Shown here piece after piece: positions 1 to 49,169 of a stretch of DNA of 64,000 bases; positions within the stretch are counted from its first letter, which is position 1; each line of letters starts with the position of its first letter. Origin of the DNA: Balamuthia mandrillaris (Eukaryota); assembly GCA_031835245.2 (NCBI GenBank), contig JAVKOQ020000015.1, positions 1 to 64,000 on the forward strand. Direction: 5' to 3'. The notes under the pieces were generated by a model. It made no database searches. It was not told the origin of the DNA and was given only the letters and a program-made list of their open reading frames with translations. Both the position numbers and the translations under genes were made by a program.

Positions 1-3000
1 TTATTTAATTGTAAACTTTATGTTCTTGTCAAATATTCTATTTTTAAAATAAAAATATCAAAAAACATTAAGTTTTTCACCTTTCTTTTTTTTTTTTTAA
101 GCAGTAAATAAAGCATTTCAGCAATGCAACACCTTGTTTGTGTTATTTTAAGACTATATCTGGAAAGTATTTTTTAGTTCTGTTTTTTAAATTTATTGTG
201 AGAGTGAATTATTTTGTTTTTGACTTAAATAATTAATTTCTCAAGTACATAATGTTTTCTAAGGCTTAAACCAATTGTATTCAATTTTCCATAGCCTGGA
301 ACATAGATAAGTAAATTTTCATAAACATAGCTTGTTTAGTTGTAGACTTAGCTTTTAATCATTTGTTTTTTTTTTTAACTTGGATAAAATTGCTATATTT
401 AAAAAAAATTTCAAAAAAAAATCACTCCAGAGTCAGGTTGTCCTTCTAAGTGACTACTCTTCTCTATACCAAACAAACCTTTCCAAAGGAACCCAATCTC
501 AATGCAATATTTCAACGGATATTTCCTTCTTCAAGTGAATGCAGGAATGAGAAGCGGGTGGGCCCATGCAGCCATTTTGTCTTAACGGAAAGATATGGCA
601 AGGCAGTGCCCCTGTCCCAACAATTTCCAGCATTGTTCTTTCACCAGTACTAAATGCTTTCAATTATTGGTTCATATGTAACAACGTAAGCCAATCAATC
701 AATTGAACGACCTAGGTTAATCTCCCCTTCTTTTCCCTGGAGCTTTCGAAAAATATAATGTTTTTTTCGCCCTTTTAAATAGTCATCCTTCGATAGCGCC
801 TTTCTATTATGGTTTTTCGGTTATTTTCTGTCGACATGTCTACAAAAATCCAAAATTTAACTCCTCAAACATTTTTTTTACAATTAAAGTTTATTTTTTT
901 ATTTTTTCACAAACAGTTCACACTTTTTCCACTTGTTTTTCCCCTCTTATTTTTTTAATTGTGTTTTTTCTTTTACAAAGTCTTTTTAAGTGAATTTTTT
1001 TTTTATTTTCTACCAATATTTTATGTCAACAACAATGCTACCTTCAACTTCAAAAAAAGTACATTGTTCACTTTGTTTGAATTTGATTCCTTGTCCTCAA
1101 TCAAATCAACTTTTTTGTAGCAAAAAATGTAAAAGGTTTGTTTATTTATTTTAAAAGTAATTTTTTTTGAATTATTATTTCTTATTCATTTTTATCTTGC
1201 TTCAAAGATCCTTTCACACTCAACAAAAACAAAAAATGATAATATCATCTGCATCTACTTCTTCTACAACTTCAACTTCCACCTTGAAATCATCATCATC
1301 ATCATCTTCTTCTTTTTTTTCTTCTTCTTCTTCTTCTTCTTCTTCTTCTTCTTCATTCATTCCCATTTTTTATGATGACAATGATGCTTTTAATTTTGAA
1401 GAAGATAATGATAGTTTTTTTGCAACATCAGATGAAGAAGAAAAAGAGAAGGAAAGAGAGACCAATAATGATGATTTTTATTTTTCTTCTTCTTCTTCTT
1501 CTTCTTTTTCTTCTTCTTTAATAGACTTGACTACAACATCAACAACTCCAACAACAACTTCTACTCTTTTCATTGATTTGGTAGATTGTTCTTCTTCTTC
1601 TTCTTCTTCTTCTTCAGAAAGTGAAGCAGAAAATGAACCAACAAAAACAAAAAGAAAAGAGAAAGTACAACCACAACAACAATCATCACAAGCATTACCA
1701 ACCACTACCCCATCAGCAAGAGTGTCTCGAGCTATTCGTATGCTTCCTTCTTTAATGTTAGAAAGATGGGAATACTTGAGTGCAACTTCTTCATGATGGA
1801 GTGATTCAACTTTGCGAAAACATGCCTGGGCCAGATTGATTTGGACAGCATTTTGTGATAAGTGGAAACTTGAACCTTTTCCTTTGGATGCAGATAAACA
1901 TCATCTTGGAGCATTTGTGGAATGGTTGGTGATGACTGTTGGATATGCTTTGACTTCAGCAAAAGATGTTATTGTGGCAAGTTTGTATCATATTCATATG
2001 GAAGAAACAGGAGGAGAGCAAGTACCACAAAAGATACAAGATACTGTGAATTTGGCAGCAAAGAAGTGCAAACAACGTGCTCCATCTTGTACAAGATCAG
2101 GAAGAATGAGAGATGCTTGTTTGAGGGATGATGTGATTCAAATCATAACGATGATTCCGGATGGTAAACGCAAAAAAGCAAGAGATGCCAGTTGTTGGTT
2201 GCATAGTGTAAGCACTGGAGCTAGAGCCATCACAGCTTCCAACATTCTTCTTGGACATTTTCAGAACTTCATCATCCAAGATCCCTCTGATCCTCACAGT
2301 CTCTGCTTCTTTTCACTTCTTCATCAAGTTACCAAAGGAAAACCAGGAGATTGGAATCACATGATTACTTTGGAAGGCTACCTTCATCCTCCTCCTCACA
2401 TCAACCCCACAGCTGACTTCATCTACTGGCTTAATCTTCATCTTCAAGAAACTCATTCTTTATGCTTAGAAGAGTTTTCTGCTTGGAATCTTTCTCCTCA
2501 ACAACAAGCTACTTCTTTGTGGGGACTGAGCCCTGATGCTTTGAATGCCAGACTGAAGAAATGTGCTAGCCAAGCCAACTATCCTCCAGGCCTCTTTACT
2601 TTCCATTCTTTGAGAGCTGGTTTCATTTGCACTGCTTTGATCAAGCAGGGTTTGAATGACAGTCAACAAAGAAATGCAGTACTGGAATCTACAGCTTTTA
2701 TTGCTGGTTGGCAGCCTTATGGACGTTCTCAACAACGTTATGTGAAAAGCACTGCTATCAAATCCATGGTTGCTAATAGATTAGTTTCTTCCTCAGGTAT
2801 TTTATTTTTTCTTTTTTTTTTAATTTGAGAAAGAAAGAAAAACTTATCTTACTTTTTATTTTCTTTTGCACATACAATCAATTAGGTGAAGCCTCTTCAA
2901 CCAGTTTGATGGATCCAACTTTAGTTACCAAAGAAGTATTTCATAATTTGAAAGAACCTTTGACTTCAAAGTGGTCTTTACAAACTAATTATGAAGCCTT

Positions 3001-4000
3001 TTATGACAAAGTTATGGAAAGGTTGGTGTATTTTTTACTTTATTATTATTATTATTTTGTTTATTTTGTTTATTTTTCTTGTGCTTAACTCACTCATTTT
3101 ATTCATTAATTTTTATTTATTTTAGATTCCAAAGCAGAACTGATTTATCCAAGTCAGATCATGCTAAATTATGCAAGTCTTTATGGCAAAAGTGCTTACA
3201 TGCATGGATAGACAATCATGAAGATGAAGTTGAAGAAGAGATGAGCCAGGAAATGGAAGCATTCAAGCAAAGAAATAACTCTCAAGATGCATCATCACCA
3301 CCACCACCACTTAATCACATCAAAACGATTGTTGGAAGAAGACATATTGCAAGCTTGTTGGCAGGCAACTTTCAACTTTTAGATGAGCTTTTGGAAGCAT
3401 TCATAGAACCTGCATTACCTCATCTACAAAACCATTCACCTTTGAAGCAAGTACCTTACAAAAAATGAAAAAATGGACCCTTTCAACTTCAAACTTCTAC
3501 TCCAAGAACTCGCATCAAAACTTCCAATCATCGTCAACATCAACCTTGGAGTGATGAAGAAACAAAAGAGTTGATTCATTTGCGTCTTCATAAAAAAGCT
3601 ACTTGGGTTGAGATTGCATCAACTTTACCTCAGCAACTCAGGACAAATGTGGACTGCAAAGACAAATGGAGAAACTTAATGCTTAAGTATGGTAGTGAAA
3701 AAGCTATTTGTCAACATTTTAATATTTGATTTTGTTTGTTTTTTATTTTCTATTTTCATGTTGAAATGTTTTTATGATATTAAGTTTTTTTTTATGTTGT
3801 TGTTATTTCTTTATCTTCAACATTTTTTTCTTAGTATTATAAAAATATTTTAACAAAACTGCCTTTTTATTGATATTTACAACTTTAGAAAAGATTAAAA
3901 AAAATTTCATCACAATATAAGTGTATCTATTTTAGACTTAGTTTTTTATGATATTTCTTTAAGTTACAAGGAGAGGCTAGCTTAGGTTTAAGAGTACTCG
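1..4000 (+). mobile_element. Putative Crypton-like YR element 1 (AT-rich; left end not defined)
   Basis: AT-rich block carrying YR copy 1. It ends in TAGGTTTAAGAGTACTCG immediately before telomeric repeats, where base composition changes abruptly. Confidence 0.6.
1023..3729 (+). pseudogene. YR-telobox copy 1: N-terminal CxxC...FCSxxC zinc motif, tyrosine recombinase, C-terminal telobox Myb domain; two in-frame TGA stops
   Basis: Exons 1023-1135, 1208-2796, 2886-3021 and 3126-3729 join in frame through GT-AG introns. YR catalytic motifs: GAR (box I Arg), QVTKG (Lys), FHSLRAGF (HxxR), IAGW and QRYVK (Tyr). The last exon reads PWSDEE...TWVEIA...RTNVDCKDKWRNL. In-frame TGA at 1794-1796 (copy 2 has CGA/Arg at the aligned position) and at 3466-3468. 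Confidence 0.88.
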
Positions 4001-4020
4001 CCCCTAACCCTAACCCTAAC
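4001..4020 (+). repeat. Interstitial telomeric repeat C(CCCTAA)3C
   Basis: cccctaaccctaaccctaac, the complement of TTAGGG repeats. Confidence 0.9.
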
Positions 4021-6786
4021 CTAGCCGACGTCGCATTCCCGCTAGCAGCAGTGGCAGCATCGCGAGCAGTAGCCAGGAGAGCAGCCAGCCCAGCGATGCT
4101 TTGGCCCGTGAACGTGCTGAGCTTAGTCAGCTCATGTTTACTGCCACCCAGACCTCGGCAGAACTCATTTTAAACAAAGGTACTATATTCAACTAACCCG
4201 TTGGTTACACCACCACCGCACTTTAGGGTTTTTATTTTGTTTGTTTGTTTGTTTGTTTGTTTGTTTGTTTGTTTGTTTGTTTGTTTGTTTATTTGTTTGT
4301 TTGTTTGTTTTGTAGCATTTCATTGGTTGGTTTGCATTGTAACTTAAGGCTTGTATGTTTCCAGTGGCTGCTATTGGTAGCCCAGAGGCCGAGGCTGAGA
4401 TCCTCAGCAAATTTAACCCCGGCAATCGTGCGTTCTTTTTAACCCTTTATCTCTCTTTTCTCTTTTCCTTTTGTCCATCATTGTTATTTATTATGGTTAT
4501 TGCTGTTGGGGTTTTTGCTTTATTTTTTGGTTTCCTTGTGTGTAACTGAGCCTCTTTGTTTTTCTTTCTACCTACCGCCGACCAATCAACCAACCAACAC
4601 CCAACCAACCAGACCCTTGGAGAGTACATCTCAGGATAGGTGTCTTGAGCGGTAACACTCGCTTAGCCACACTGCAAGCCTTGCTAAAGGCAAAGCAAAC
4701 AGCAGTCAATGCAGCAGCAGCGGTGGCAGCAAGTTCAGCATCGCTATCCCCTGCTGCTGCTGCTTCACTTGGCCTACCTTCATCATCGCAAGAGAGCTCC
4801 ATGCCTTCTGGTGGGACCATCAGCAGCATTCTCTCCACTCCTCCGTCAACTCCGCTGAGAACCACAGCCATTGTAGCTGCCTCGCCGACTAGCCCCTTCT
4901 CTGCCTCTTCATCAGCTGTTGCTGCCTCTTCTCCTCAGCAGCAGAGGGTGGCGGCAAAGTTGTCGGACAGCGATCTTAACGTGATGTATCGTTCGGCTAG
5001 CGATGTAGTACGGTGCTATCACCTCGCCGGCGAGAATGGCGCATGGTTATCACCCGTCATGCCCATCTACGGTAGATTTTTTAATATTATTCATCTTCTA
5101 TCACTGCCAGTGCATCAGATTGTGTCCATGGTGGAAGATCCCAACACCAAAGTGAAGCCCCGAGAATGGTCATTTGCAGACACGTTGCTGAAACTGGCCA
5201 ATGCCGTGCAACTATCAAAAACTGAGTATGTTCTTCTTTTTGTTTGTTTGTTTATTTGTTTGTTTGTTTGTTTATTTGTTTGTTTGTTTGTTTTATTTGG
5301 CTGGCCCTTGGTTATCTGACCTAACTACCTCTCAACTTACTGCTATGTGTATGTGTTGTGTTGCATTGTCAGTGCAATGGATCAGATTCAAAGTAACAGG
5401 GCCTTGAAAGTGGCACTTGCTGCTGCAGAACATATTTTCGATGAGGCCAAATCAAAGAAAAGCCTACCTCCACGGGAGACGCTCCCCTATTTTGTGCTCA
5501 CCAAACAGGATTTGCCAGCAGCTCATGCGAAATCCTTTACACTCAACGCTTTTCGACAAGATCTCTCCCTGGTGGAGCATATGTCCATCGATGTTATTTC
5601 CCAACTGGCAGCAGAGAACCGGGGTCTCATTTCGAAAACCGACTTTCATCTACTGCACCCCTTGGCTCCAGCCATCCAGAAGCAGTTGGTGTTTTATTAT
5701 TACATTCCCATGGTGGTCAGCCCTCCGTCTGAAGTAAATACAGAGCAAAGCAAAACCTTTCTGAGGTTTTGTAGACGAAAGGTCCATCCGTTTATCATTA
5801 TCTATTTGTTTGTTTGTTTGTTTGTTTGTTTGTTTGTTTGTTTGTTTGTTTGTTTGTTTGTTTGTTTGTTTGTTTGGGTTGGTTGCTTGGTTGTTCAATT
5901 AGTGGTTGGAAGGAAAGTACTAACTCTCTCTTGCTCACTTTGGATGGCTGCAGGCCCAGAACGAGGGAATCATCCAGGAATTGGGTGATATCATGGCCAA
6001 TGGCTTACGCTGCCATGGCAGCATCGTTGAAGGACCTTGGATCGTCAACGGTCTGGAAAATCCACGGTGGAAGTGGCTGGCGCAATCCATTCGCAAAGGT
6101 CATTGGGATGTGTTGCATCAAGCCGCTCTTGGTCTTGATCGTGGCAAAGAAGTCTTGCCGCCGATGGATTCATCACAACAACAACAACCGTTGGATGCTA
6201 CTTCCTCCCAATCTAGCAGTAGCAGCAGCAGCAGCAGCAGGTTTTATGAGACACCAACTGGAAGTTGGATCCGTAACCTCATTAACGCTGCAGTGTATAG
6301 CATTCTGAAGGAGGTGCCCTCCTCGGATGAACGGCGCAACCGCAAAGGACGCATTTTTCAGGGTTCCTTCACCCGGGAAGAACTGTTGTTAGTATATAGA
6401 CAACTCCCTCTTGGCCTGCAGAAACTTTTTATGTTATTACGGGCCAAAACTATCCAGTATGTTGCTTCTCTTTTGCTTGGTTGCTTGCTTGCATGCAATG
6501 CAAGACATGTTATCCTTGCCGCCTCTCTATATTCCCTTTGCTTGTTTACTCACTCACTCGCCCCCTTGCGTGCTTGCTCATAGTGATAGCGCAACACACG
6601 AGGAGAATACCCGTTTGCCACCGCTGCGCCAAGAATGGTTGAACGAGTCATCTTTGGCAGATGCCCTAATGTCATCTATCCCCTCAAAGCCAACAACCAG
6701 CAGCCATCGAACCAAAGTGCAACAAGAGATGATATCAGAAGGAGGAGAAGAGGAGGAGGAAGAAGAAGAGGAAGAAGGTGAAGAGC

Positions 6787-6818
<32 letters not shown>

Positions 6819-7650
6819 GAAGCAGTAGTGATGGAGGAAGATCCAGAAGCCTTCTTACATCCCCCATTGGACCGCCAGCAATTAGAGCAGGCAGCCCGAA
6901 TGGAAGCAATGGTAGAGAAGCAGTATTCTGCCAAGGAAAAGTTGTTCCAATACCGTATGAAGCTAACCCATTATTGTCCTCCTTTTACGGTGCAAGAAGC
7001 CTTGGCAGAGAACGCGTTGAACTTTGCCAGTCTGAAATCCTTGAAAGGCATGCGCATTTCTACCAGCATCAACCTTTCTGGACCTTTGGAGGATGTCAAG
7101 CGGTTGATGCTTGCTGTTCGTCGCTGCTTGGTGAAGGAAGCGCAACAACATAATGCTCCGCTGGAGTTGGATCCTTTGGATAGAAAGCTCTGGAAGACAC
7201 GCATTCGTCATCCGGTTCGTTCTCAACTGGAGCGAGTGTGGCCGCACATCACACTGGAAAAATCCAGGAAACCTGAGCGACGGCAAAGCAAAAGCAAAAG
7301 CAAAAGCAGCAACAGCAGCAGCAGCAGCAAAAGCAAGAACAAGAGTAAAGCTAGCAGCAGCTCTGCTACCGCAAACATGCCAGCAGACCCGTTATACAAT
7401 GCAGCTGCTATTGTGCATGTAAAGGACTTGCCTGAGCTGGATGCTATATCACCACTCGCGGCTGATTGGTAAGTTGTTTGTTTATTTGTTTGTTTGTTTG
7501 TTTGTTTGTTTGTTTGTTTGTTTGTTTGTTTCATAGGAAAGGAACAACTCACCACTCACTACCAACCTCCTCCCACTTACTTTCCTTTTAACATTTTCTC
7601 TTTCTTTCTCTCTCTTTTTCTTTTTCTTTGTTTCTCTTTCTTTCTCTCTT

Positions 7651-7694
<44 letters not shown>

Positions 7695-9371
7695 TCTCTC
7701 TTTCTCTCTCTGTCATTCTCCAGGGATTTACAATATGTGGATCAATTGGATAACAAAACATGGCAGCCTATCCATACCACCTCTACCCAAGTCGGCAATA
7801 CAGAAATGAAGAGGGAAAAGCATCGTGCCAAACGCCATTCTGTTAGGCACCAAAAAGCCATGGACAAGCTGGCTCAGAAGAGCAGTGAGCTGCAGCAAGA
7901 TATCTCTGTTGATGCCAGCCCCTGTATTGACTTGACAGAGTTTTTTGGGCCTGACCTTCGCTCTTTTGCTGCTGTAGACCAGAGTAGTTTGGATGATGCG
8001 GAGTTTAGTCTCGATGATGGCAGTATCCTGGGTGGAGGTGGTGGTGGTGGTGGTGGCGGTGGTGATAGTGGAAATGCTACCTCAGCTGGTGTGTTCGCAG
8101 ACACAATGGACCTAGCAGCAACAGCAGAAACAGCGCAGCAAAAACCAAGCTCAACAAAGCGCCCAAGAGCTATGTCTTCCTCTGCTGCCTCTTCCTCTCC
8201 TGTGACAAGCAAGAAGCCACGGAAGGCAGATGATGATCAACAGTTGTTGAAAAAAAAGAAAAAAAAGCAGCAGCAGAAGCAGACACAGAAGGACAAGGAG
8301 AAGCAGAAGCAAAAGCAACAGCAGCAGAAAAAGAAGAAGGAGAAGGAAAAGGAGAAGCAAAAGCAGAAGCAACAGCAGCAGAAAAAGAAAGAGAAGGAAA
8401 AGGAACAAGAGAAGGAGAAGCAGAAACAACAGCAGAAAAAGAAACAAAAGAAGACTATGGCCACCGAGTCAGAGGAGTCCGAGGCCTCATCCGCATCAGA
8501 GGCATCAGATAAGTCGGAGGAGTTAGAGACCTCATCTGAGTCAGAGGCATCAGATAAGTCAGTAGAGTCAGGCAAGTCAGAGGAAGAGGAGGAAGAGGAA
8601 GAGGAAGAACCCAAGAGGACAGAGAAGCCTGCAACTTCCACCAAGTCTACTGCTCCTAGCATCAGCAGCAGCAGCAGCTCCTCAGATGATGATGATGATG
8701 ATGAGATGGCCAGTCTCATGAGCCTTGATATCACTAATGTAGCAGGTAAGAGGCGCTCACGTTTGGTGTTACTTACAACAACTCACATATGCATTAACCA
8801 CACTTGCATGCATGCATGCATGCATGCAGATACACGTGATGGTGCTGGAGATAGCAAAACAAAGTCAGATATCCCCAACAAGACAGCTCCTTCAACAGGT
8901 GCAATGGTGGATAAAGAGATTGATGATTCCATACTGATAGACGTGTTAGAATGTATGTATTTTTATTTTATGTGTCTATTCGAGTTTGGTTCTCTATCTG
9001 TCTGTCTGTCTGTCCATTCGTCCGTCAGTTTTTCTACTAGCTTTGTGTTTTGTCTTTGTTTTGTTGGTTTACTGGTTTTCTGTTTGTTTGTTTGATGTTT
9101 ATTTGTTTGTTTGTTTGTTTGTTTGGTTGTTCTCTTCCTCGTGGTGTTTTTTTTTTGTTTTTGGGCTTTTCAGTTGCAATTCTATGCTTATGCAGTGGCG
9201 CTCCGTCGGAGCGGCAGCTTTTTAGCTCCAGTTTTGTTCTTATTATTATTTGTTTTTTTGTTGGTTGCCTTTTTGGTGTTAATTGTTTAGCGCTCCAGTG
9301 GAGCGCTATCTTTTTGGTGTTTGTTTACACTGTTATGCCTTTGTGATTTCTCATTCAAGCCTTACTGATTT

Positions 9372-9403
<32 letters not shown>

Positions 9404-9475
9404 CTAGTATCAAAAAAACCTGCTAATGACCCAGCAAAACAAGTAGCAGCAGCAGCAGCACAAAATGAAGATGAG

Positions 9476-9507
<32 letters not shown>

Positions 9508-9796
9508 AAAAGAAAAAGAAAAAGAAAAAGAAGAACCAAAAGCAGCAGAAGCAGAAGCTGGCGAAAAAAAAGCAGAAAAACAGAAAGAAGAGGAAAAGAC
9601 AAGTGCTACCAAGAGCCCTAGCAGCAAATCTACACGCAAGGCTGCAGCTGCTGCTCAAAAGGCTATTGCTACTGCTGCTGCCAAATCATCTTTGCAAAGA
9701 GCTGCTGCTGCCGTGGCTACCTCATCTAGCAGTAGCAGCAGCAGCAGCAGAAAAGGAGCCACAACTCGTTCACAACGCCGTAACTCAGGCAGGTGA
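4020..9796 (+). CDS. Unknown multi-exon protein (S/A/Q/E/K low-complexity tracts), apparently 5'-truncated at the telomeric repeat
   Basis: The frame PSRRRIPASSSGS...DALARERAELSQLMF runs back to the TAA of the last CCCTAA with no ATG upstream of this segment. Later exons overlap ORFs 4645, 5347, 5981, 6411 and 7494. The last exon ends SGR-TGA at 9794-9796. Introns are (TTTG)n-rich. No domain recognised. Confidence 0.6.
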
Positions 9797-10366: not shown

Positions 10367-10399
<33 letters not shown>

Positions 10400-13367
10400 A
10401 CAGAAGATAATATATCTATTCCTGCTGTCTTTGACAAACCATCACTACTAAACAACAACAACAACAACAACAAAGAGGCAGCAATAGCAACAACAGTAAC
10501 AGCAATAGAAGAGGATGATGAAGTAACGATTGTCTCAATATCATCACCCTCATCCTCATCAACAACATCTTTCAATCATCACTTTGCTCCCTATCAGGCT
10601 CTCAACACTCGGTCATTCGTTCGCAAGCAGTTTTTGGATCATTATTTGTTAAAAACACCACCACCAGCAACTGTTGTTGCTTCTGCTCCTGTTATTGTTG
10701 TTGATAATCCTGCAGAGCTTTTTTCACCTCCTCCGTTTTCTGCATCACCCTTTTCATCCACTACCACCACCATCACCGCCACTTCATCATTTACTCAATC
10801 ACAACCACAACAACAACAACAATCTTTAGAAAGGATGACCTCTTCTTCTTCTTGTTCTTCTTCTTCTTTTTCTTCTTCTTCTTCTTCTTCTTCTTCTTCT
10901 TCTTCTTCTTGTTCCCCTTCTTCTCCTCCTCCTCCTCCTCCTTCTTCTTCTCTCCCTTTTTCTCCTCCTCCTCCTCCTCCTCCTTCTTCTTCTTCTTCTT
11001 CTTCTTCTTCTTCAAATTCAGAGTCCTTTGTCTTTGAGAACAATGACGGTGATGTTATGGATAGCAACGGTGATAGTAATTTATCAGTATCATCATCATC
11101 ATCTTCATTAAGAGGAAGAAGAGGAGGAGTAGAAACAGAGGAAGATGCAAGAAGCAAAACAACAACCCCACCAACATTGATTGATTTGTTATTGTTGACT
11201 GAAGACGAAAAAGAAGATAAAGAAGAACACAAAGAAGAAAAACAAGGAAAAAAGAGAAAAATAGAGAAACAACAAAATAGAGCTAGAACAAATAATGATA
11301 ATGATGACGATGATACTACACATGGCAGCAGTAGTAGTAATGGTGGTGGTGGTGATGGTGGAGGAAGACGTCTTTCTCGTGCTATCACATTGATGAACCG
11401 TTTGACAGAAGAGCGGTGGACAGAGTTGACGGCAGTGACGAGTCGATGGAGCCCTTCTACCCAACGTAAACATGCCTGGACTTTGGCCATCTGGGAAGCA
11501 CATTGTGCGCATCATAAATGTTTGCCAGCTCTTCCTTTGAATCTCCAACGTCATAACGTAGGAGCCTTTGTTCAATGGTTGATTTTGGATGTGGGTTATG
11601 CCTTGAGCTCTGTGCGCAATGTCATGATTGCCAGTCTTTATCGTTTGCATGATGAAAGTATCCAACAACAGCTTGACTCCCTTTCTGCATCCTCCTCCTT
11701 CTCCTCTTCTTCTTCCTCCTCCTCCTCCTCCTCCTCCTCTGTTTCCTCCATGATCTCTTCAACTTCAGCATCATCATCATGTACCACTTCTCTCCCACCT
11801 TCTCCTTTATCCAGAACCCTTCTTGGTGATGGTGTCACTCGAGCAGCAACAACAGGAGCGACAAGATGCACTACAGCACTGACAACAACCTCAGACCATG
11901 CTTACTTGTTGTTGCTAAAAAACCAAATGGATGCCATCAAAGATCAAGTCAAACAGGCCATTCGACATTGCAAAAGAGCCAAACCCTCCTGTTCTAGCAA
12001 ACAATTGTGCAAAGACGCATGTTTGTTAGATGATGTCTTACATATTATCGCATCCACTCCAGATGGACTGGTGAGCAAAGCTGCTGAAGCCAGTTGTTGG
12101 TTACACAGTGTTTGTACTGGTGCCAGAGCCATTACAGCTGCAAACATTCGTTTGGGTGATATTGTGGCATTTCGACCTAAACTTTCATCCTCCTCTTTTA
12201 ACAACAACAACAACAACAACAACAATAATGACAACATCAGCTGCCATCACCAAGAGGATGCATTTTCTGCTCCTCCTCTTTATTTCCTTTCGTTGCGCCA
12301 ACAAGTCACCAAAGGAATACCAAATCATTGGAATCATGTCGTTACATTTGAAGGTTATTTAACACCACCACCACCACTACCATCATCATCATCGCGAGGA
12401 TCATCTTCTTCACCATCACCATCACCATCATCACCACTTAGGACCGCTGCTGCTACGACCTCTGCTGCTGTTACCACCCCTGCTGCCACCACATCAACAA
12501 CATCAACACCAAGCATTTGTCTTGGAGATTTTATTTACTGGTTAAACAAGCATCTGTTATGCAAGCATGGTTTGGATTTGCGCGAGTTTCACAACTGGCG
12601 CTTAACAGATACACAAAAACAAACATCATTATGGGGATGGTCACGCGATACTTTAAATGCCAAGTTGCAAGATCGGGCTGTTCGGGCTGGTTATCCTGAA
12701 GGATTGTTTTCCTTTCACTCCTTGCGTGCTGGCTTCCTTTGCACTGCCTTGATTTTGGAGGGACTGCAGGAAGGTCATAGTCAGAACAATGTACTGGATA
12801 CTACTGCCCTTATCGCAGGTTGGGTACCTCGTGGTAGATCCCAGCAAGTCTACGTCAAGGATACATTAAAACGTGCTATTGTGGCCAATCGCTTGGTCAG
12901 CAATGTTACCACCACTCATCCTCATTCTTCTTCTTCTTCTTCTTCTTCTTCATCATCTTCATCCTCTGTTGCAACTACCACTGCTGATTATCATCCCCCT
13001 CGACATTGCGGTTCGTTACTGCTCATCTGATTTTTGTTTTTTCTTTTGTTTTTTCTTTGGCTGGGCTGGCTGCCTGACCAGCGTCAATAAATCACCACCA
13101 CCACCACCACCACCACCACTATCACTTGATGGACTGACTTGCTCTCTTTTTGGTTCTTTTTATTCTCACTCCCTTGTATACATACAGTTATTGCTCCAGA
13201 GCTAGTTACCAAAGAAGCATTTCACAATCTATCCCCAGATGCTTTGCAACAATCCAACTGGTCTGCAGATACCAACTATCAGAGTTTTATTCATGCTGTT
13301 CGCCAACGGTTTGTTTGTTTGTGTTTGTTTGTTTGTTTTGTTTGCATAGTATCCACCACCATCACCA

Positions 13368-13431
<64 letters not shown>

Positions 13432-14589
13432 TTATCTATTTATCTATCCAGTCAGTTTTTAGCTTGTTTGTTTGCTTGCTTGCATTCAAAAATGCACCCT
13501 TAGACCTAGCGCTCAGCTAGAACGCACAGGTTTATTGTGACAGCAGCAACATTCATAGTCTAAACAATAATTGTTATAATTGGTCTTAGTTCATTTGTTC
13601 TTCTTTTGACATTCACTCACACTTTGTTTTTTGTCTCTTTTCCCTTTTTCTTTCTTTTCCTCTTTCTTTCTCTCACTTTCTCTTTCTTTCTTCTTCTTCT
13701 TTTACACTGCTTCTTTAGGTGGTTCATGAAACGAACAGATTTGCCAACCAAAGATCAACAAATACGATTTTATCGCTCCTTGTGGCTTGAATGTTGTACC
13801 GCTTGGGTAGAAAATCATCCAGATGAGTTTGACAAGGATGTGCTAGCTGAAGCTGCAGCCACCTATGAGGCCAAAAACAAATCTCCTCTTCGTTGGCCCA
13901 ATATTCATCGCCAGCTGTGCCGTCAACACATCTCTGGCATTCTACAAAGCTTTTTCAGTGGCTTAAATGAGCTGGTGGATGAGTTTGTAGCTCCTGTACT
14001 TCCCAAGTTGGTCAACGGATCACCCATTCACAAAGCATTCCTCACCTCTCGTCAAGAGCAATCATCCTCCTCCCTTGCTTCTCTCGATGCTGATGATGAT
14101 GACAAGAGTCCTGACTCAAAAAAACAAACACCACGACGACAACGACTTCGCAGAGCGCTTCAGCGACAACAATTGTTATCCAATCAACTCAAATATCGGA
14201 AGAATGGCCATCGGCAACGGATCGCTTGGCAGGCACCAGAAATCCGTAGACTTGTCACTTGGCGCTTGCGTGATGGATGGTCTTGGTTGGAGATTGCCAA
14301 ACACTTGCCTACCCAACGTCGAACCAACAATGATTGCTATGATAAATGGCGCAATCTCCTCACAGAATTCTCCAACAATCTGGACGCTTTGAAGGTCAAA
14401 TACTTGGTGGCCCACGATGAGGACTTTGACAAATCGGATGATGATGATGATAATGACAACACTTCCTCCCCATCATCATCTCCTACTTTTACTACCACTA
14501 CAGTTATATCCATCTTGGATGAAGAGGAAGAGACAGAGGAGAATGATGATAAAGATGATGATGATGATATTATGATTATATCTTGTTAG
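10367..14589 (+). CDS. YR-telobox copy 2: tyrosine recombinase plus telobox Myb domain; reading frame intact, start codon uncertain
   Basis: Exons ~10367-13010, 13188-13308 and 13719-14589, with two introns at positions equivalent to the last two introns of copy 1. Motifs: GARAITAANI, QVTKG, FHSLRAGF, IAGW, QVYVK. Myb: AWQAPE...WSWLEIA...RTNNDCYDKWRNL. The first in-frame ATG within this stretch is at 10835. Confidence 0.88.
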
Positions 14590-14703
14590 ATTATATAGGT
14601 ATTTTTATACGAAAATTGAAAAAATTGCTACTTTGACCCACTTTATCCGTTAGACTTATAGACTTAGAGTTTTATAGAATGGACCATGGGGAGTTGAATG
14701 CCG

Positions 14704-14732
14704 TAGGTTCTGAGTACCCGCCCCTAACCCTA
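14704..14732 (+). other. Conserved element-end motif plus telomeric seed (TAGGTTCTGAGTACCCG-CCCCTAACCCTA)
   Basis: Closely matches 3983-4012 (TAGGTTTAAGAGTACTCG-CCCCTAACCCTA). Confidence 0.8.
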
Positions 14733-17700
14733 TTAACGTGACTCTCAGCAGCACCGTTAGCTCGGGGATGATACGAAGAGATGAAACGATGGTCAAATCC
14801 AGCTAGGTTCTTGAAAGCGGTCAATACAGCATTGGCAAACTCTGTACCATTATCTGATTGAATGATTTTGGGAAAACCAAAATCGCAGATAAACTGGTAT
14901 AGAACTTGAGCAGTGGCAAGAGCGCTTTGGTTGGAGAGAGGTCGAAGAAGAGTGAAGCGAGTGGCCATATCAACTAGTACCATCACATAGGAAAAGCCAT
15001 GTTCGTCAGAAGGAAGAGGGCCGAAGAGGTCGATAGCAATGTGGTCAAATGGATAAGTAGCGGTGATGGTCTTCAAAGGATAAAAGCCATGTTTAGTCAC
15101 GTTGAAGTGTCGGCAAGCATCACAAGAGCATGTGACGAAGTGACAGTCAGAGCGGAGAGAAGGCCAGAAGTATCCTTCATTCCAAATTCGATTGAAGATA
15201 TGGGAGGCACCTTCATGAGTTTCAGAGTGAAACTTTTGAAGAAGTTCTTGTTGTTGTTCCAACGAGGGGGCAGCCTTATTGTGGAAAGTCTTGATAAAGG
15301 CAGAAAGATCCTTCGACGGAGAAGAAGGAGGAAACTGATCAAGCTCAATCTGAAAAAGAGACAAGAGGGAAGATGACTCAGGTGCAGACAAGGCAGAAGG
15401 CGAAGATGAGGAGGTCTTAGGAGTCAGAGTCTTCGCAGATTGAGGGATTATCGGCCTGGTTAAACCAGCCGAACCATCCTCTTCCCAAAAATTCTTCGGA
15501 TAGAGTCGAGAGAGGCAGTCTTCAAGGATCATTTTGATTCCAGGACGATGGACAACGTCGAAGTTGTACTCGAGGATGATGTAGGCCCAGTTGTTAAGCA
15601 TATAATTGGAATGCTTGGAAGTGAAGAGATAAGTGAGAGCCTTGTGATCGGTGAAAAGGGTAAAGCGGCAACCATAGAGCCAGCACCAAAATTGCAGAAG
15701 AGCAAAGACAATGGCAAGGAGCTCACGTTTCGTAGCTGGATAGTTGCGCTGGGCATCGTTGAGTGCACGGCTAGCAAAGGCAATGTAGCGACGTTGCTTG
15801 TCCGGGGTCTCTTGGTAGAGAACAGCACCAACACCATTCTGGGAGGCATCAGTTCCAACGAGAAAAGGGAGATCAGGAGCAGGAATGCTCAAGACAGGAG
15901 GCGAACTGAGGATGCGGCGAAGAGCATCAATAGAAGCTTGACAATCAGCAGTCCAGAAGGGTCGGAGATCACGGACGTATCGAAGAGCGTCAAGAGGAGC
16001 CGTAAGGCATGCAAAACGAGGGATGAAAGGCCGTAGAAAGTTGGCGAAACCGAGGAAGGATTGCAACTGCTTTCCAGTAGTAGGAGTAGGAAAGGAGCGA
16101 AGCGCAGACAATTTGTCCCAATCAGGGGCGAAGCCGGTGGAGGAAACAATGAATCCAACAAGCCTGATTTGTGTGAAGCCAAAATGACATTTCTCAGTTC
16201 GAAGACGAAGGCGCGCGTCGTTGAGAGCAGAAATAACAGCACGAAGATCATGGATATGATCATCGAGAGAAGAAGATGACTTGGTGTGCACTAGACAATC
16301 ATCGATGTAGTGGGCAGAACAATCGCGTAGTTTATTGAGAATGATGGTCATCAGACGCTGCATACACGAGGGAACTGTCTTGATGCCAAAAGGAGCACCA
16401 CGGAACATCCAATGCTTGCCTTTCCAAGTGAAGGTAAGTTTGGGCTGGTCTTCGGGGGCGACAAGGATTTGGTTGAAGGACCAAATAAGATCTAACGAAG
16501 AAGCCACAAAGAAACCAGCAACACGTTCCACAATGTCAAGGATGGGGGGAATAGGGTAGATGTTATCCACCAAAACAGAATTGATAGCTAGAGGGTCAAT
16601 ACAAGCGCGTACTGCAGTAAGTTGACCAGAGGCATCCTTTTTGGGAACGGCTAGGATGGGACTGTTCCAAGGGCAATTGTCCGGGGCGGGAATGATGACT
16701 TGATGCTTGGCCCAGGATTCAATTTGCTCATCAACAGCAGCGTGGTAGGCGTGAGGAAGGGGGTACTGGTGTCGGAATATGGGTCGATAATTATTCGTAT
16801 TGAGATGCAAAACAGCTTGATGAAGAGGAGAAGAAGGCCCAACTGGAAGCTGTTGGTTAACGTCCAAGAGGTCTTGAATAGCATTGACGATACGTTGCTG
16901 CTCGGACGGAGGAAGAGACTTCTCACGATATTGCTCAGGAGTCGTGACATTGGAATCGTCAGGAGGCGAAGGAGAAGTAGAAGGGAAATTGATGGGAATA
17001 CCACTAATTTCGAGGCCCAATTTCTTCAGCATGTCGCAGCCGAAAATGACTGTTTCACTCTAAGAGAGCGAAAGGATGCGGAAGTGATGACGGAAACGAA
17101 GCTTTCCACATGTGACCGGAACAGAGAGGGCTACGCCATGAGCTTCTGCTACTGAGTTGTTAGCGCCAAGGGTCACGGAAGATTTCAATGGATGAAATCG
17201 GACGTGGAACTTCTTAGCAGTCTCCAAGTAAATAAATGAGCGAGAAGCGCCAGTATCGAGAAAGGCGGATACCGGAAGGCTATTAATCAAGGCAGGCACA
17301 CAGATTTTGTCGAAAGAAGAGTCATCGTTGTTGGCGTCGAGCTGAAAAAGAGAATCAGCTTGGAGCTCCTTGATAGCGCGATTGTATTCCTCATACGAAT
17401 CATCAGTATGAAGAGCAGACAGGGAATCGCCAGAGGGTTGCACAGGAGGGGTAGGAGTCGAGTCGTCAAGAGAGTTGAGCGAAGCTGGCGGCTTCTTCTT
17501 AGGGAGCGGGCACTCATTGGAGTAATGGCCTTTCTGGTTGCAGTTGTAGCATGTAATGTGGCTCTTGGACTTTGTTGCTGGGGATGGTCCAGAAGAGGAG
17601 GCACCAGAAGGAGAAGAAGAAGTACCGGATGATGATGAAGAGGTGTAGGCCGAACCATTGGGCTGTTTCCTGTGTTGGAGCACATGACAGTCGGACGTGT

Positions 17701-18979
17701 CATGTCCAAATGTCTTGTGGACCTTACAGTAAGGTCGTTGCATCTTCTTTTTGCTACCATCATCAGTAGGAGTCATCTGATCGGGGTCCCGGAGGTCGCT
17801 TTCAATCGCCAGGGCGATGTTGATCGCTTCATCCAAGGAGCGAGGAGCCTTTGAGAGAACAGTACCAATGTAAATTCATCAAATGTCCTTAGGAAGCGCC
17901 GACCGAAACTTGTGCAGCAACGCAGGAGTAGATAGCTTGTTCACCATCTGGTCACAAAGGGAACGAAGACAATCACCAATAGCACGAACGGTCTCACCAG
18001 GTTTGGCCTTGAAACTGTGGTACTCATCCTGAAGCTTGGATTCGTACTCCAGAGACGTAAAGTGATCCAAAAACTCAGCACGAATGTCTTCCCAGGTCAT
18101 GTCAGAAGCCAAGGTTTGCTTTGCCCAGTGGAAGGCATCGGGATCAGTGATTTGAGAGACAAGAGCAAGGTACCAAAGATCTGGCAGATAACGATTAACT
18201 TCGAGGATTGTTTTGAAGCGCTCAAGGAAGGAGACAGCGTTGTGTTTTGCAGGATTGAATTCAGGGAGTCAGCAAGGCAAAGGGAGAATGGTTGCAGACG
18301 ACTAAGAAGAAGAGGGAGACGGGGACAAAGAAGCAAAAGCAGGTCGGACTCGGAATGACCACGGAAGCACCATCGAGGTGGACAACGTTGCAGCCATTTC
18401 GGAGACAGAGAGGATGTGTCGCCGGAGTTGAGGCACAGCGGGAGAATCATCAGAAGAAGTCTGTGAATCTTGGTCAGGAATACGCAGTTCAGAAGTTCTC
18501 TCTACAAGAGCGAAACACGCAGTCAAGTCGTTTAATTCTTGCTGAAGGGTATCCACATTAACAGAAGGGTCCAGAATCTGGACCTGCAGTTGTTCTTGTT
18601 GCAACTGAAGAGCTGAGTACGGATCAGCGTTGAAGCCCAAAGGATTTGGCCGTGGTTGAGCGGCACTGGTTGAACCAGAAGGAGTCACCATTTGCAGCAT
18701 AGAAGAAGCCGAACCACCTACACCTGAGGCAGCTGAAGATGACGAAGAAGCAGCCGGTGCCGAAGAAGCAAGAGATTGTTGTTGAAGAAGAGATTGCAGT
18801 TGTATTTGTTGCTGCTGCAGTTGCTGTTGTTGCTGCTGCAGAAGTGCCAAGATTTGTTGTGCGGTTGTTTGCCAAGAATCTATGGATGACGAACCACCAG
18901 CAAAAGTAGGCGGTTGATTTGTGTTTCCCGTTGCCGTGCTTTGTGGCTGTTGCTGTTGTGTCTGTTGCGAAGCTTCCAT
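14733..18979 (-). pseudogene. gag-pol polyprotein in a single reading frame with five nonsense codons
   Basis: Starts MEASQQ at 18979 and stays in one frame. Stops: TAG 18302, TGA 18269, TGA-TGA 17876-17881, TAG 17060. Confidence 0.85.
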
Positions 18980-19626
18980 CACCAAATAGTTTGACTCTCC
19001 AAAAAAAAATGTTAGAACCTGAGCATAGAACCAAGACAGGAACCAAGAGAAAGATGGGAGCCAAACGTATTTAATGAGAGGAAGAAAACAAGTGTGTTTG
19101 TGAGTGTGTTGTTTCTTCGTTTGTTCGTCTGTGTGTTCTTGGTTGTGGGAAAAGTATTTATAGTTGAGAAGGCAACCAAGGAAGGAAAGGGGCTCGGGGT
19201 TGGGGAGTGACTTCTTGGTTTCTTTGTTCTTAAGTTCTAGGCTCGGGAAAGTTCCAGGGAAGGCAGGAGAAAGATCTTCGGAATGGCTTGGTGTCGACAT
19301 AAAAGATCGATGATAGCTGACGTGAGATTGTCGACAGAAAAGAGAAAAGAAACGAAGAAAGAAACGAAGAAAGAGTTGGTTATGTTGGCAGTTGCCAACA
19401 GATTTAGATTTTAAATTTTAGAAACTAAAATAGAAAACTAAAATCTGCTTGAGGGGGATTCATGAAACTGACCAATAGGAAAAAACTCCCACATTACCAA
19501 GATCATGTCCTCTCCCCTCTCTTCTCTCCTCTCCTCCATGGCTATTATTGGCTTTCCTAATCGGGACGCTGATTATCCGTCCTCGGTGGATATCCGGGGG
19601 GATAAGCATAGCGATCGGATAACTAC

Positions 19627-19634
19627 CTTATATA
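19627..19634 (-). promoter_or_regulatory. TATATAAG box, possible 5' LTR promoter
   Basis: Reverse complement of cttatata, oriented towards gag and embedded in a cluster of GGATA/TATCC palindromes. Confidence 0.4.
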
Positions 19635-19674
19635 GAAGTTATCTGCGGATATCCGCTTTATCCCGCCGGCAGAG

Positions 19675-21250
<1,576 letters not shown>

Positions 21251-21354: not shown

Positions 21355-24147
21355 TTATTCTTGCACAACCATTGGTTCAACCAGCATTTGTACTTCCTTG
21401 AGGAAGGAAAGCAATTGGTCAGTTGATTGGAAATAAAACATTTGTGGTAAGTGATGAGTACCAGGCAGGAGGTCTCGAATTTGTTTCCTGAGTGATTCAT
21501 AATCTCCCTTTTGGGCAGTAGTCAGCATGGAGGACCAAATTGTTGGTGCCAAATGGTAACGCCAAAACTTGATGATCTTTTCTGCCTTCTCTTCTACACG
21601 TATTTCCTCAAAGGTGGTGAAGAATAGAGTCTGGAAGACACTCTTCACTACCATCTCTAGGTCATGAGCAAAGGTAGATTCATAGGTCTTATTCAAGTGC
21701 CAGCACTGAACAACATGCTCTGGGGCATATTGCAAGGCACCAGAGAACTTCACCTTTTTTCCCACTTTAGTTGCACAGCCCCAGTCATTAAGAAATACCT
21801 GATGAGAGGTGTCATAAATTCAATGGTGATGACGAGACAAAAACACAAGGGGTAGTGTAGTTGAACAAGTCGGCTAATGTTAGTTCCAGTCACACGGCAA
21901 GAAGGAAGAGAACAGAAGAAGAGAGAATGAGGACAACATTACCGTTCCAGTGTCTAGATGTCGAAAGCAGTTGGATAGACGCACGTCCCGATGGACCAAT
22001 CCATAATTGTGGTGGACCTGCTCAAGAATATCCACCAGTTGACAGAAATCATCTGCCATGGCAAGCATTGTCTGGTGGTCGTGGCCCTGTCAGTTTGAAA
22101 ATAATAAGAACTGATAATGATAATGATGATAATGATAATGGACATACAGTATTGTGGTTGGTACAGTGGGAAAGCCGAGAAGCAAAGTGTCCTCCGACAG
22201 GACTAAGTAACAGCACAAGCTGCTCCTCATCATCAGCAACGAGTGTTGGGACCGAAGGCACCAAGTCTTGGACCTCCTCCAGGCAGCGTTTTTCATTCTG
22301 CAAGTAATATAAATTGTCCGCCGAGTTGAACCTTTTAACGACCACTGTATCACCTATTACCATCATGATCATCATCAGTAATCATGAACTCATCTATTGT
22401 TGTTTGTTGTTGTAAAACTCGGGGAAATACCTTTGTACTGGCCGCTGTACACGACAGCAGACCCGCCAATGCCAAGAAGCTCATTCATGATGACTGGCTC
22501 TTCATCGATGACGATGTCTTCTGGTAAACCGTGTGCTGCTTTGTTGCTCTGAAGCAGTCCTAGTAGCCACTTGCCACCATCGCTGTGTAGATGAAGGATG
22601 GGGCTCTCGGTCCACTGATCTGTGGTTGAGAGCTTCTGTAGACGGAAGAACTGGATTAGACAGCCATCCGTGAGGAACCCATTCACCACACTACGGTAGG
22701 GCTGGTATTCAAGCAGGAGCTCTTCGAGGAAGGAGTGTAGATGACCCTTCTCAGAATCGTCAAAGTCCTCCTTTGTTGCTGTACGCCTTGCTTTGACATC
22801 ACCCAGCAATGTGATGTAAAATATGCTCTTTGGTTTGTCCTTCAAGTAGCCCACAACGTCTGGCTTGCGCCTGCCGAAAGACACCTTGTTGTAAGTATCC
22901 ACCAAGGTGACAGGCAGATCCGGAAAGAGCTTCACAAGGAGCTTCAGTTGACTTGACCAGTAGGGCTGAACGACCTTACTTTCAGACGCGCCTGCGTCAG
23001 GATACCCACGAGGAGGAAATAATGGTTTACCCCCCTTTGCTTTTCGTTGGTTGCGGCGGATAGGGAACCATGGCTCAACCACTTTGTTCTTCACTGGTAA
23101 TCGCTGGTATCTCTCTGCAAAAGTTGACGGAGTACTCCCTGGTGTTTTTGTGGTTATTATCATCATGTGGTTGCTTGTAAAAATTCAAAGTGAAAAGGAA
23201 GTAATGGGTATGGACGCACGTTCTGTCCTGTCCCTGTGAGTGGCCTTTTGCATTTCGCTTGTGGCCGTTTGCATTTCGCTTGTGGCCGTTTGCAATTCGC
23301 TTGTGGCCTTTTGCACTTCGCTTGTGGCCTTTTGCACTTCGCCCATCATTCTTTCTTCCAGCCGTTTAATGTCTAGAATGCATTGACACAACATCTTAGG
23401 GACAAAAAACACATAAAGAGTCAGAGGGAAGGGTAGGAACCTACCGACATTAGTCACAGGCCGGAGTGGACTGCCTGTGGCAGGTGTTGGATCTTACCAG
23501 TGAAAAGAGGCAAGTGGTGAGAAAAGGACAAGGTTGTGGAAAGGTTTGGTGAACGGAACAAGAGGAGGGAACGCTCACCTTTGCCTTTTTCTGGTAGTAG
23601 GCTGGGGGGGTTCACATGGAGATTTGAAAAGGGAGCCTCTAGACCAGAGCTAGTGGACGCGGCAGTACCACGATCAGTCTCTTTTGCGTGTTTGTTTGTT
23701 TTTTTTTTTTTTTTTTTGGTTTGGTTGGTGTTTTAGTTCTACTGCACCACCATAATGACCAACAAAACCATACCATAATGTTCTTGCAGCCTTTCAGTGA
23801 GGGTGTTGAGAAGAGCATGCAACTTTACTTGTCGCTGCACAAAGGAGGGCAATAGGGCTGTAGCCGCGCTGCGCAAGTGCTCGTCCGAATACGTCAGTAT
23901 TTTCTGCTCTAACTCTTGTATTTTCTGCTCTACCTCCTGGATTTCCCTCTTCACCTCCTGGATTTTTTGCTCTACTTCCGTCTTTATGGCCTGGCTGCTC
24001 TTCACTGGCCCCTGCATCCTTGCGATCTTCCACAGTTCGTTTGAACGCTTGATCTACGTGTGTTTTCCTGCTTTTGTCCTCATAGTACAGATCAAGGGGA
24101 TTTTTTTTTTGTCGAGCAGGAAGCGGAGGTGGTGTAGACGGCGACAC
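21355..24147 (-). CDS. Crinkler/CR-effector-like protein: coiled-coil N-terminus, PD-(D/E)xK REase domain, protein kinase
   Basis: REase: RKPDVV...LGDVK...GFLTDG. Kinase: LGIGGSAVVY, VVVK, NE, VHRDVRLSN, NDWG, HDLE. Multi-exon; the start is uncertain. Confidence 0.75.
23240..23343 (-). repeat. Five 21-bp coding tandem repeats (heptad of the EVQKATS type)
   Basis: Variants of gtggccttttgcatttcgctt, five copies. Confidence 0.9.
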
Positions 24148-47309: not shown

Positions 47310-49169
47310 TTATTGCAAGGAAACTTCCAGCAAGGGGCTGTGGAAGCAGCGCTGGCTGCAACACAACAACTCCCACCACACTTTTCTTTCCTCATCCCAA
47401 AACCTTCTCACCACTTCCCTTGCTTCCCCTTTCTCTTCTCTTCCCTCCTCCGCCTCTTCTGCTGCTGCTGCTTGTGTTGATCTCTGACCTCTGTTGGGCA
47501 GGTCCTCCTCCAATGATCTGCCCTCTTCATCGTCAAACTCCAAAAACAGCTGTTCACAAACATCACATCTTCTTTGCAACCTTTCCAGCCGTTCCTTCAC
47601 TTCTTCGGGCAGCACCACTGCTCCACCCTCCACACTTTCTTTCTCTTCTCTTTGGTCTTCCTTCCTCCCTTTCTTTTGCTGATTTTGCAGAGAAGAAGAA
47701 GCAGCAGCACAAGAAGATGAAGTAGAACCAAGCCAAGCAAAGGGAAGGTCTGGCACAAGGGCCAACAGGCCTGTGGGCAAAAGCTTGTTCCTCAGCACTA
47801 CCTCTCCGCTCAAATGCCACAAACTTTTCACTGTGGTGTGGTTGTTCCTGAGCGGGGATTCCTTGGGCTTCCCTCTCTTCCCCTCCTCTTGCTCTTCATT
47901 CTTCTCCGCTTGTTTAAGCTGTGCTTCTTGCTGGTGAAGAAGTTGAGAGGAGTGCGTTTGCATGCATGGGAGAAGACCGATTGCAGAGAAGGGCAGTGCT
48001 GCCAATGGATTTTCCTCCAGGTTGCAGTAAGTGAGAGCGGTGAGTTGGCTAAACTCTCTCGGCAAAGAGCTCAGCTGGGTGCTGCACAGCCAGCAGTGGG
48101 TGAGGGCAGTGAGCTGGCCAAACTCTCTCGGCAAGGAGCTCAGCTGGTTGTATGAGAGGTTGCAGTCAGTGAGAGCGGAGAGCTGGCCAAACTCGCTCGG
48201 CAAGGAGCTCAGCTGGTTGTTGGAGAGACAGCAGAAAGTGAGAGCACGAAGCTGGCCAAACTCTCTCGGCAAGGAGCTCAGCTGGTTGTCGGAGAGGTCG
48301 CAGCAAGTGAGAGCGGAGAGCTGGCCAAACTCTCTCGGCAAGGAGCTCAGCTCGTTGTTGGAGAGGTCGCAGTGGGTGAGAGCGGTGAGTTGGCTAAACT
48401 CTCTCGGCAAGGAGCTCAGCTGGTTGCTGCACAGCCAGCAGTGGGTGAGAGCACGGAGCTGGCCAAACTCTCTCGGCAAGGACGTCAGCTGGTTGTATGA
48501 GAGGTGGCAGCAAGTGAGAGCGGAGAGCTGGCCAAACTCTCCCGGCAAGGCGCTCAGCTGGTTGTCGGACAGGTTGCAGCAAGTGAGAGCGGAGAGCTGG
48601 CCAAACTCTCTCGGCAAGGCGCTCAGCTCGTTGTTGGCGAGGTTGCAGTCGGTAAGAGCACGGAGTTGGTCAAACGTTCTTGGCAAGGAAGTCAGCCTGT
48701 TGTTGGAGAGGTCGCAGTGAGTGAGAGCGGATAGCTGGCCAAACTCTCTCGGCAAGGAGCTCAGCTGGTTGTTGGAGAGGTCAGAGACAGTGAGAGCGGA
48801 GAGCTGGCCAAACTCGCTCGGCAAGGAGGTCAGCTGGTTGTTGGAGAGGTAGCTGCAAGTGAGAGCGGAGAGCTGGCCAAACTCTCTCGGCAAGGAGCTC
48901 AGCTGGTTGTTGGCGAGGTCGCAGCAAGTGAGAGCGGAGAGCTGACCAAACTCGCTCGGCAAGGAGCTCAGCTCGTTGCCCATGAGGTTAAATACAGTGA
49001 GAGCGGTGAGCTGACCAACCTCTCTCGGCAAGGAGGTCAGGTAGCTCTGGGAGAGGTCGCAGGTGGTCGAGTGTGCGAAGCGGTGGAACATGGCGGAAGG
49101 GTAGGGAAGGCCTTCCTCCTCCTCCTCCTCCTCCTTCTCCCATCGTGGTCTTCTTTCCGTTTCTTCCAT
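47310..49169 (-). CDS. Leucine-rich repeat protein (~15 x 23-aa LRRs) with a C-terminal BC-box-like motif and a Cys-rich motif
   Basis: LSSLPREFGQLSALTxCxLxxNQ repeats, then VKSLWHLS and CDVC...LCCSQRC. Intronless. Confidence 0.9.
   Translation of the reverse strand: MEETERRPRWEKEEEEEEEGLPYPSAMFHRFAHSTTCDLSQSYLTSLPREVGQLTALTVFNLMGNELSSLPSEFGQLSALTCCDLANNQLSSLPREFGQLSALTCSYLSNNQLTSLPSEFGQLSALTVSDLSNNQLSSLPREFGQLSALTHCDLSNNRLTSLPRTFDQLRALTDCNLANNELSALPREFGQLSALTCCNLSDNQLSALPGEFGQLSALTCCHLSYNQLTSLPREFGQLRALTHCWLCSNQLSSLPREFSQLTALTHCDLSNNELSSLPREFGQLSALTCCDLSDNQLSSLPREFGQLRALTFCCLSNNQLSSLPSEFGQLSALTDCNLSYNQLSSLPREFGQLTALTHCWLCSTQLSSLPREFSQLTALTYCNLEENPLAALPFSAIGLLPCMQTHSSQLLHQQEAQLKQAEKNEEQEEGKRGKPKESPLRNNHTTVKSLWHLSGEVVLRNKLLPTGLLALVPDLPFAWLGSTSSSCAAASSSLQNQQKKGRKEDQREEKESVEGGAVVLPEEVKERLERLQRRCDVCEQLFLEFDDEEGRSLEEDLPNRGQRSTQAAAAEEAEEGREEKGEAREVVRRFWDEERKVWWELLCCSQRCFHSPLLEVSLQ
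48010..49065 (-). repeat. 69-bp coding tandem repeat array
   Basis: Near-identical DNA units (gagctggccaaactctctcggcaaggagctcagc...). Confidence 0.92.

Follow-up and report, generated by a model that had tools for sequence, protein, structure and literature searches.

The window, by which we mean the whole stretch of 64,000 nucleotides of Balamuthia mandrillaris contig JAVKOQ020000015.1 that was analysed, holds two tyrosine recombinase (YR) genes on the plus strand. YR1 (1024..3729) comprises a zinc-finger exon, a recombinase core and a Myb domain and is interrupted by two in-frame stops (1794-1796 and 3466-3468); YR2 (10367..14589) contains introns and has its Myb domain at the C-terminus. 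The catalytic residues R, K, HxxR, W and Y are present in both, their core segments are about 53-60% identical, and no reverse transcriptase (RT) was detected in their ORFs by Pfam. The YR1 core occurs letter for letter in the Balamuthia protein P0029 (compared by eye) and a partial model, P0016, is 97% identical to YR2. No distal element end of YR1 was seen within positions 1-1024, and for YR2 neither a zinc-finger exon of the YR1 type at the N-terminus nor a distal element end was found. A third copy, YR3 (19678..21250, plus strand), was recognised by self-BLAST as an internal fragment of a YR2-type copy without the recombinase core and without the element end described below (end A).

Between YR1 and YR2 lies gene X (4022..9796, plus strand), a multi-exon gene without a Pfam match, whose frame starts right at a telomeric tract and whose relatives are three Balamuthia gene models with 83-98% identity. 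Gene X may be a captured, 5'-truncated segment or the cargo of a 10.7-kb YR2 element. Splicing of gene X to YR2 via a donor near 9792 was rejected on the grounds of a phase mismatch (judged by eye) and a stop at 9794-9796. Further right, a DUF6826 fragment (22393-23184) marks the boundary between the repeat-rich left part of the window and ordinary genes (forkhead-like, histone H1-like, DNA polymerase A, COPI alpha and S19e), and a long leucine-rich-repeat ORF (47313-49205) is built on a 69-bp-type tandem unit.

Next to YR2, the minus strand carries a truncated Ty3/Gypsy LTR retrotransposon (14733..19400), delimited by Pfam matches, its translation and the loose ends of contigs. This copy retains a 5' LTR (19011-19400), gag, protease and a pol with in-frame stops, and the pol frame (14675-17059) matches the RT, RNase H, integrase zinc-finger and rve families, the integrase core being cut. 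Positions 14721-14732 read CCCCTAACCCTA and Gypsy sequence runs from 14733 onward. In translation the pol frame ends ...HPRANGAAESHVN and continues as RVRGG, with two bases of the N codon at the join contributed by Gypsy and one by the beginning of a telomeric tract (14722-14732). The initial annotation had the integrase cut exactly at this telomeric seed, which is where we find the break, and it correctly read the integrase (...ANGAAESHVN) as passing into the tract; the sequence beyond, which it called unrelated, belongs to a 21-mer common with the end of YR1.

Copies were compared over positions 13700-19700 using contigs and RNA reads from four of the 19 listed sequencing runs. Intact members of the Gypsy family diverge from the window at exactly 14733, without telomeric sequence. 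One contig from run X3 matches 14733-16243 and then continues for 787 further letters away from the window sequence, and three X7 contigs and five X16 RNA reads have a non-telomeric, integrase-like loose end at 14733. The tract is thus absent from intact Gypsy copies, which rules it out as a part of this family; the breakpoint that the initial annotation wished to see fixed by alignment is exactly 14733, and intact members do not carry the tract at the same position, the one finding that it had named as contrary to its reading. Its claim that the remainder of the integrase and the 3' LTR are absent also stands for the 64-kb window, where neither another copy of the LTR nor an integrase tail of the chromodomain type was found, the query for the latter being the paralogue model P0013, which is not a proven tail of this Gypsy family. 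In P0013, a Balamuthia model, the annotation fuses an SH3/chromodomain integrase tail to a paralogue of gene X, which indicates that chromovirus-type Gypsy elements exist in Balamuthia. None of the contig pieces from the four runs crosses 14732/14733, so the junction is known from the window sequence itself.

On its other side the Gypsy copy adjoins a 274-bp repeat with GGATA-rich inverted motifs (19401..19674, without strand assignment), which is cut at 19674, as marked by loose ends in X3 and X7. The repeat is joined to the YR3 fragment, continues differently in other copies and resembles a terminus of some other DNA transposon. It separates the 5' LTR from YR3 and rules out an insertion of Gypsy straight into YR3. 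C>T and G>A dominate the differences among the X1 and X7 copies over 13700-19700 and both stops in YR1 are TGA, a combination that suggests methylation-driven repeat decay. The ratio of YR2 depth to LTR depth varies widely from run to run; in X1, the depth of the 3' part of YR2 is far above that of the Gypsy internal part, which we do not take as copy number.

The tract beside the Gypsy break, TAGGGTTAGGG (14722..14732, minus strand), amounts to about two telomeric units, and a second tract of 3.7 units (4002..4023, minus strand) lies between gene X and YR1. The Balamuthia telomere repeat is given as TTAGGG, with a mean of 90 repeats, in the available text of bioRxiv 10.1101/2025.02.25.640156. 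A perfect telomeric run of 11 nt has a probability of ~3e-6 at a given base and is expected 0.18 times per 64 kb. The window contains two such runs (4002-4021 and 14722-14732), both at the ends of recombinase elements. The 21-mer GAGTACYCGCCCCTAACCCTA occurs exactly twice in the 64 kb (3992-4012 and 14712-14732), just downstream of the YR1 and YR2 genes, and had no match in 100 shuffles; together with the run statistics, this rules out a tract arising by chance. The G-rich strand points away from the retained Gypsy DNA, as in a telomerase-healed break and in agreement with the left chromosome end proposed initially. The 21-mer common with the YR1 end marks element end A of YR2 (14712..14730, minus strand), a predicted recombination core made up of a telomeric arm, GGGTTA (14730-14725), a 7-nt spacer (14724-14718) and an inner arm, GTACTC (14717-14712). 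End A of YR1 (3992..4010, minus strand) has the same succession of arm, 7-nt spacer and inner arm.

The full-length YR1-type paralogue P0033 has a confidently predicted fold (pLDDT 87) whose best match is Cre (E 1.9e-6, TM 0.62 by target). Among 78 aligned relatives the catalytic R, K, R and W are invariant, and H and Y are at least 90% conserved. The YR1/YR2 products are Cre-like tyrosine recombinases to which a Myb domain is added at the C-terminus (YR-Myb). A profile search returned 729 clusters (50% identity) at E < 1e-3 and 228 at E < 1e-30; Myb was matched in 37 of the best 150 clusters, and in 33/70 of those long enough for one. No RT family was matched in 33 long relatives, and none of 32 pattern matches in viral contigs was confirmed as a relative. 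The telobox motif of telomere-binding Myb domains is VDxKDKWRN. In a single-stretch comparison, the YR1 Myb best matched TRF2/TRF1 (about 20 bits vs 10-14) and the YR2 Myb alone gave no match; the family Myb profile scored higher against generic c-Myb repeats (38 bits) than against TRF1/2 (about 27 bits).

A metagenome scan recovered 32 related loci, with at least two perfect telomeric units in 24 of them. Nineteen apparently come from one host with genetic code 6 and TTGGGG repeats, so the loci are not independent; the rest form about six groups. Some hosts have TTAGGG as the flanking repeat, and another has TTGGGG. In the code-6 host, six complete units (2873-3192 bp) stand head-to-tail in arrays of ~3 kb units, and both ends of the units adjoin telomeric hexamers, as variable TTGGGG tracts of 2-8 repeats. 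A single unit, whose copies in L011, L012 and L013 are 99.9% identical, has three different downstream neighbours, the order of units being shuffled between arrays, and in L013 each unit contains one long YR-Myb ORF and no RT. Comparison of the first and last 150 nt of the six units gave a longest match of 8-11 nt, AT-rich, and thus no terminal inverted repeats or long direct repeats. L001 and L003 are 99% identical, L003 having three TTAGGG units at one end and L001 at least 19 at the other, where they run off the contig. No such tract was present in L006, L008, L028, L029 and L005, and that of L002 is degenerate. We consider it very probable that this element family targets telomeric repeats.

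End A reads GGGTTR, seven bases and nWAC on the G-strand in 11 of the 14 distinct junction types, both window ends included, against a background rate of 2.6% for nWAC placed equally far from the last repeat. The pattern was first spotted by eye, and the set of junction types is without L031 and L032 (GC above 0.7, weak matches). L007, L010 and one L018 tract are off the core spacing; the L010 tract, which is part of an inverted self-duplication, may have arisen in assembly. The arms of L002 mirror each other perfectly, as a 6-bp inverted repeat with the 7 nt between them, and YR sites are described in the available text of PMC3212892 as having a segment of 6-8 bp flanked by inverted repeats. 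If, as this anatomy suggests, crossover takes place inside the seven bases, the 8 nt beside Gypsy, TAGGGTTA, would derive from the target and telomeric DNA would predate YR2 at this site.

Several features of individual metagenome loci were recorded alongside. In L007 (3332-3671) the gene orientation is window-like, with a C-strand tract downstream of the ORF, an end off the core spacing and a tRNA-Met gene about 250 bp past the tract. L004 (3900-7256) encodes a 1119-aa relative among satellite-like repeats, 7.7 kb from a TTAGGG tract at the contig end. Seven apparently non-element flanks in the code-6 host (the contig starts of L009, L012-L015, L023 and L024) have TA just before the T/G run, in varying registers, and may be healing sites of programmed breakage. 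The Myb domain reads RTNxDCKDRWR beside TTAGGG vs RTxxxVRxRAR beside TTGGGG; with one TTGGGG host and with L007 breaking the pattern, this co-variation is not evidence of co-evolution between Myb and repeat, and we rejected that idea.

A broken gene, two or three repeats and an element end stand together once more in a Balamuthia gene model, and a further host shows the same arrangement. The YR1-type Balamuthia cluster has 17 members on at least 15 contigs, and three of the 15 listed YR1-type models (P0033, P0034 and P0035) run into end A. The P0034 frame crosses end A and then three repeats before it enters a Ras domain midway (Pfam positions 75-161 of 162); an open frame of 87 codons in L003 leads to three repeats followed by end A. 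P0041 is joined to a DEAD-box domain without the first 91 profile positions, and P0015 and P0042 to an exon of another YR subfamily; P0034, P0041 and their sister models are predicted gene models, known here from protein alone. Repeat number and junction register vary between cases, and the differing registers fit untemplated repeat addition, not a fixed recombinase cut.

The 14733 junction is most likely a fossil chromosome end. The history that we favour, with about even confidence, is a break and telomeric healing followed by insertion of a telomere-targeting, Crypton-like transposon. The chromosome would have broken within the Gypsy integrase at 14733, and the broken end would have been capped with new telomeric repeats. 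Into this new telomere the YR element would then have inserted itself close to the proximal edge, some two repeats away from the break. The enzyme is envisaged to excise the element as a circle, whose core site (arm, 7-nt spacer and nWACTC arm) would recombine with a telomeric repeat with the help of the Myb domain, so that the repeats on the Gypsy side would derive from the telomeric target and not from the element. YR2 would later have lost its distal end and become joined to the gene X segment, which would then itself have broken and, once healed, taken up YR1. Two former chromosome ends would thus lie nested. We favour this order because the family lies in telomeric repeats, with the right polarity and with the anatomy of a core site. 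Insertion near unique sequence and unstable tracts, as in MoTeR elements, would account for the shortness of the tracts and for YR2 being without its distal end.

Three points complicate this order. The last letters of Gypsy are ...GTTAA and the first of the tract are TAGGG, and the intact copies lack that first T, so that there is no primer-template pairing at the seed. A telomerase primer paired with its template and ending in that A would go on with GGG; judged by this behaviour, the homology-free, out-of-register join counts against telomerase healing. Further, YR2 has no distal end next to repeats and so may not be a complete inserted unit. Lastly, two units are far below the mean telomere of 90 repeats, and selection or targeting must be invoked.

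The main rival, possible though on balance doubtful, is telomere capture, in which YR2 came from another telomere whose short proximal tract broke; end joining or break-induced replication would then have attached the freed element and its tract to the broken Gypsy, with no telomerase acting at 14733. The blunt, homology-free, out-of-register join fits capture as well as healing, YR2 is without its distal end and adjoins a repeated segment, and MoTeR relics with partial telomere tracts are read as such events in the available text of 10.1101/845669. Two breaks are needed per event, however, and the architecture recurs across several loci and hosts, always with the polarity of an end, and is tied by L001 and L003 to a long terminal tract. 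Of the two origins that the initial annotation offered, break, healing and YR insertion is thus the better supported and insertion of the YR element into the retrotransposon is disfavoured; it left out capture of an element already carrying its tract and, having seen the YR copies, missed that they belong to a telomere-targeting family with a conserved end.

Direct insertion is less likely than capture, and we regard it as improbable. Here an element with two or three repeats on its circle would have entered the Gypsy integrase and other genes, later elements would have piled into the repeats, and the Gypsy remainder would have been pushed left of the window. The tract is indeed the minimum common to the YR1 and YR2 ends, YR1-type copies lie on at least 15 contigs, some beside cut host genes, and the left end of the array lies beyond the window; yet repeat number and register differ between junctions, as they would not after a fixed recombinase cut. 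Moreover, no Gypsy remainder occurs in the 14.7 kb to the left, and the repeats at the next tract (4002-4023) stand again beside a truncated gene, gene X and not Gypsy, which disfavours direct insertion. It is also rather improbable that the YR-Myb enzyme itself joins a telomere-capped element, via two or three repeats, to arbitrary internal sites and discards the distal arm. Were the enzyme to make chromosome ends in this way, the Gypsy integrase, gene X, Ras-RapGAP and the L003 ORF would be products of transposon-driven fragmentation and capping, and the Myb helix would be tuned to the repeat of each host. An assembly chimera of repeats at 14732/14733 is least expected, and we think it very unlikely: the region is repeat-rich, no listed contig piece crosses the join and the best run contains only 0.58 of the sampled words, but there is no common sequence at the join to mislead an assembler, and the same architecture is found in the independent records P0034 and L003.

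No account of a telomeric YR-Myb element came up in a literature search that did not reach Repbase Reports or most subscription journals, and the lineage of telomere-targeting YR-Myb DNA transposons is probably undescribed. Target-specific DNA transposons are described as rare in the available text of PMC8869645. Were a DNA transposon of 3 kb with one gene to recombine into telomeric repeats, it would represent a minimal integrase specific to telomeres. Each insertion preserves a former junction of unique DNA and telomere, so the elements would record past break-healing base by base, and de novo telomere formation in protists would become directly countable from such junctions.

SART and TRAS are telomere-targeting retroelements, and to our knowledge the telomere-targeting elements known so far are either retroelements (TATE, MoTeR, SART/TRAS) or large viruses. 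According to the available text of PMC6681497, TATE of Leishmania braziliensis is a YR element that forms tandem clusters at a fixed position in telomeric hexamers. The elements described here likewise encode a YR and form tandem clusters within telomeric hexamers; TATE is a retroelement, whereas the complete units here have one YR-Myb ORF with no RT detected, and no DIRS/TATE-type RT ORF was found in the L013 units or in the 33 long relatives. In endogenous nimaviruses a YR is tied to insertion into the host telomere motif, with concatemers or episomes across the tract (PMC10871703, available text). The association of a YR with telomere-motif insertion is common to both; pemoniviruses measure 300-360 kb and have arm-binding YRs, in contrast to the 3-kb single-gene units here, and 'myb' has no occurrence in the available text of that paper. 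MoTeR1 of Magnaporthe was found inserted one and five repeats from telomere-adjacent sequence, tracts of three or more units are unstable and break, and truncated relics end in one or two repeats and become internalised (10.1101/845669, available text). MoTeR elements thus resemble ours in forming arrays in telomeres a few repeats from unique sequence, but as non-LTR retrotransposons they use a different enzyme class.

Cre (PDB 1pvr, 2hof and 1crx), the best fold match of the predicted P0033 at about 12% identity, is without the helical extension and the Myb domain and acts on the symmetric loxP site. Cryptons have a single YR gene, and a circular intermediate has been proposed for them (Kojima and Jurka 2011, PMC3212892); CryptonV targets microsatellites (PMC8869645), in each case as given in the available text. 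For the YR-Myb elements no circle junction appeared among the copies compared over 13700-19700, a stretch with one element end. Unlike Cryptons as described there, the YR-Myb family has a C-terminal Myb domain and not GCR1_C or DUF3504, neither of which was matched in Pfam searches of the Balamuthia models and long relatives ('myb' does not occur in the available text of PMC3212892), and its units lie between variable telomeric tracts in tandem arrays, not beside a fixed 4-6 bp repeat. As in Cryptons, there is a single YR gene with an added DNA-binding domain, no RT or RNase H and no terminal inverted or long direct repeats. The YR-Myb element would therefore work like a Crypton, a likeness drawn from gene content and ends.
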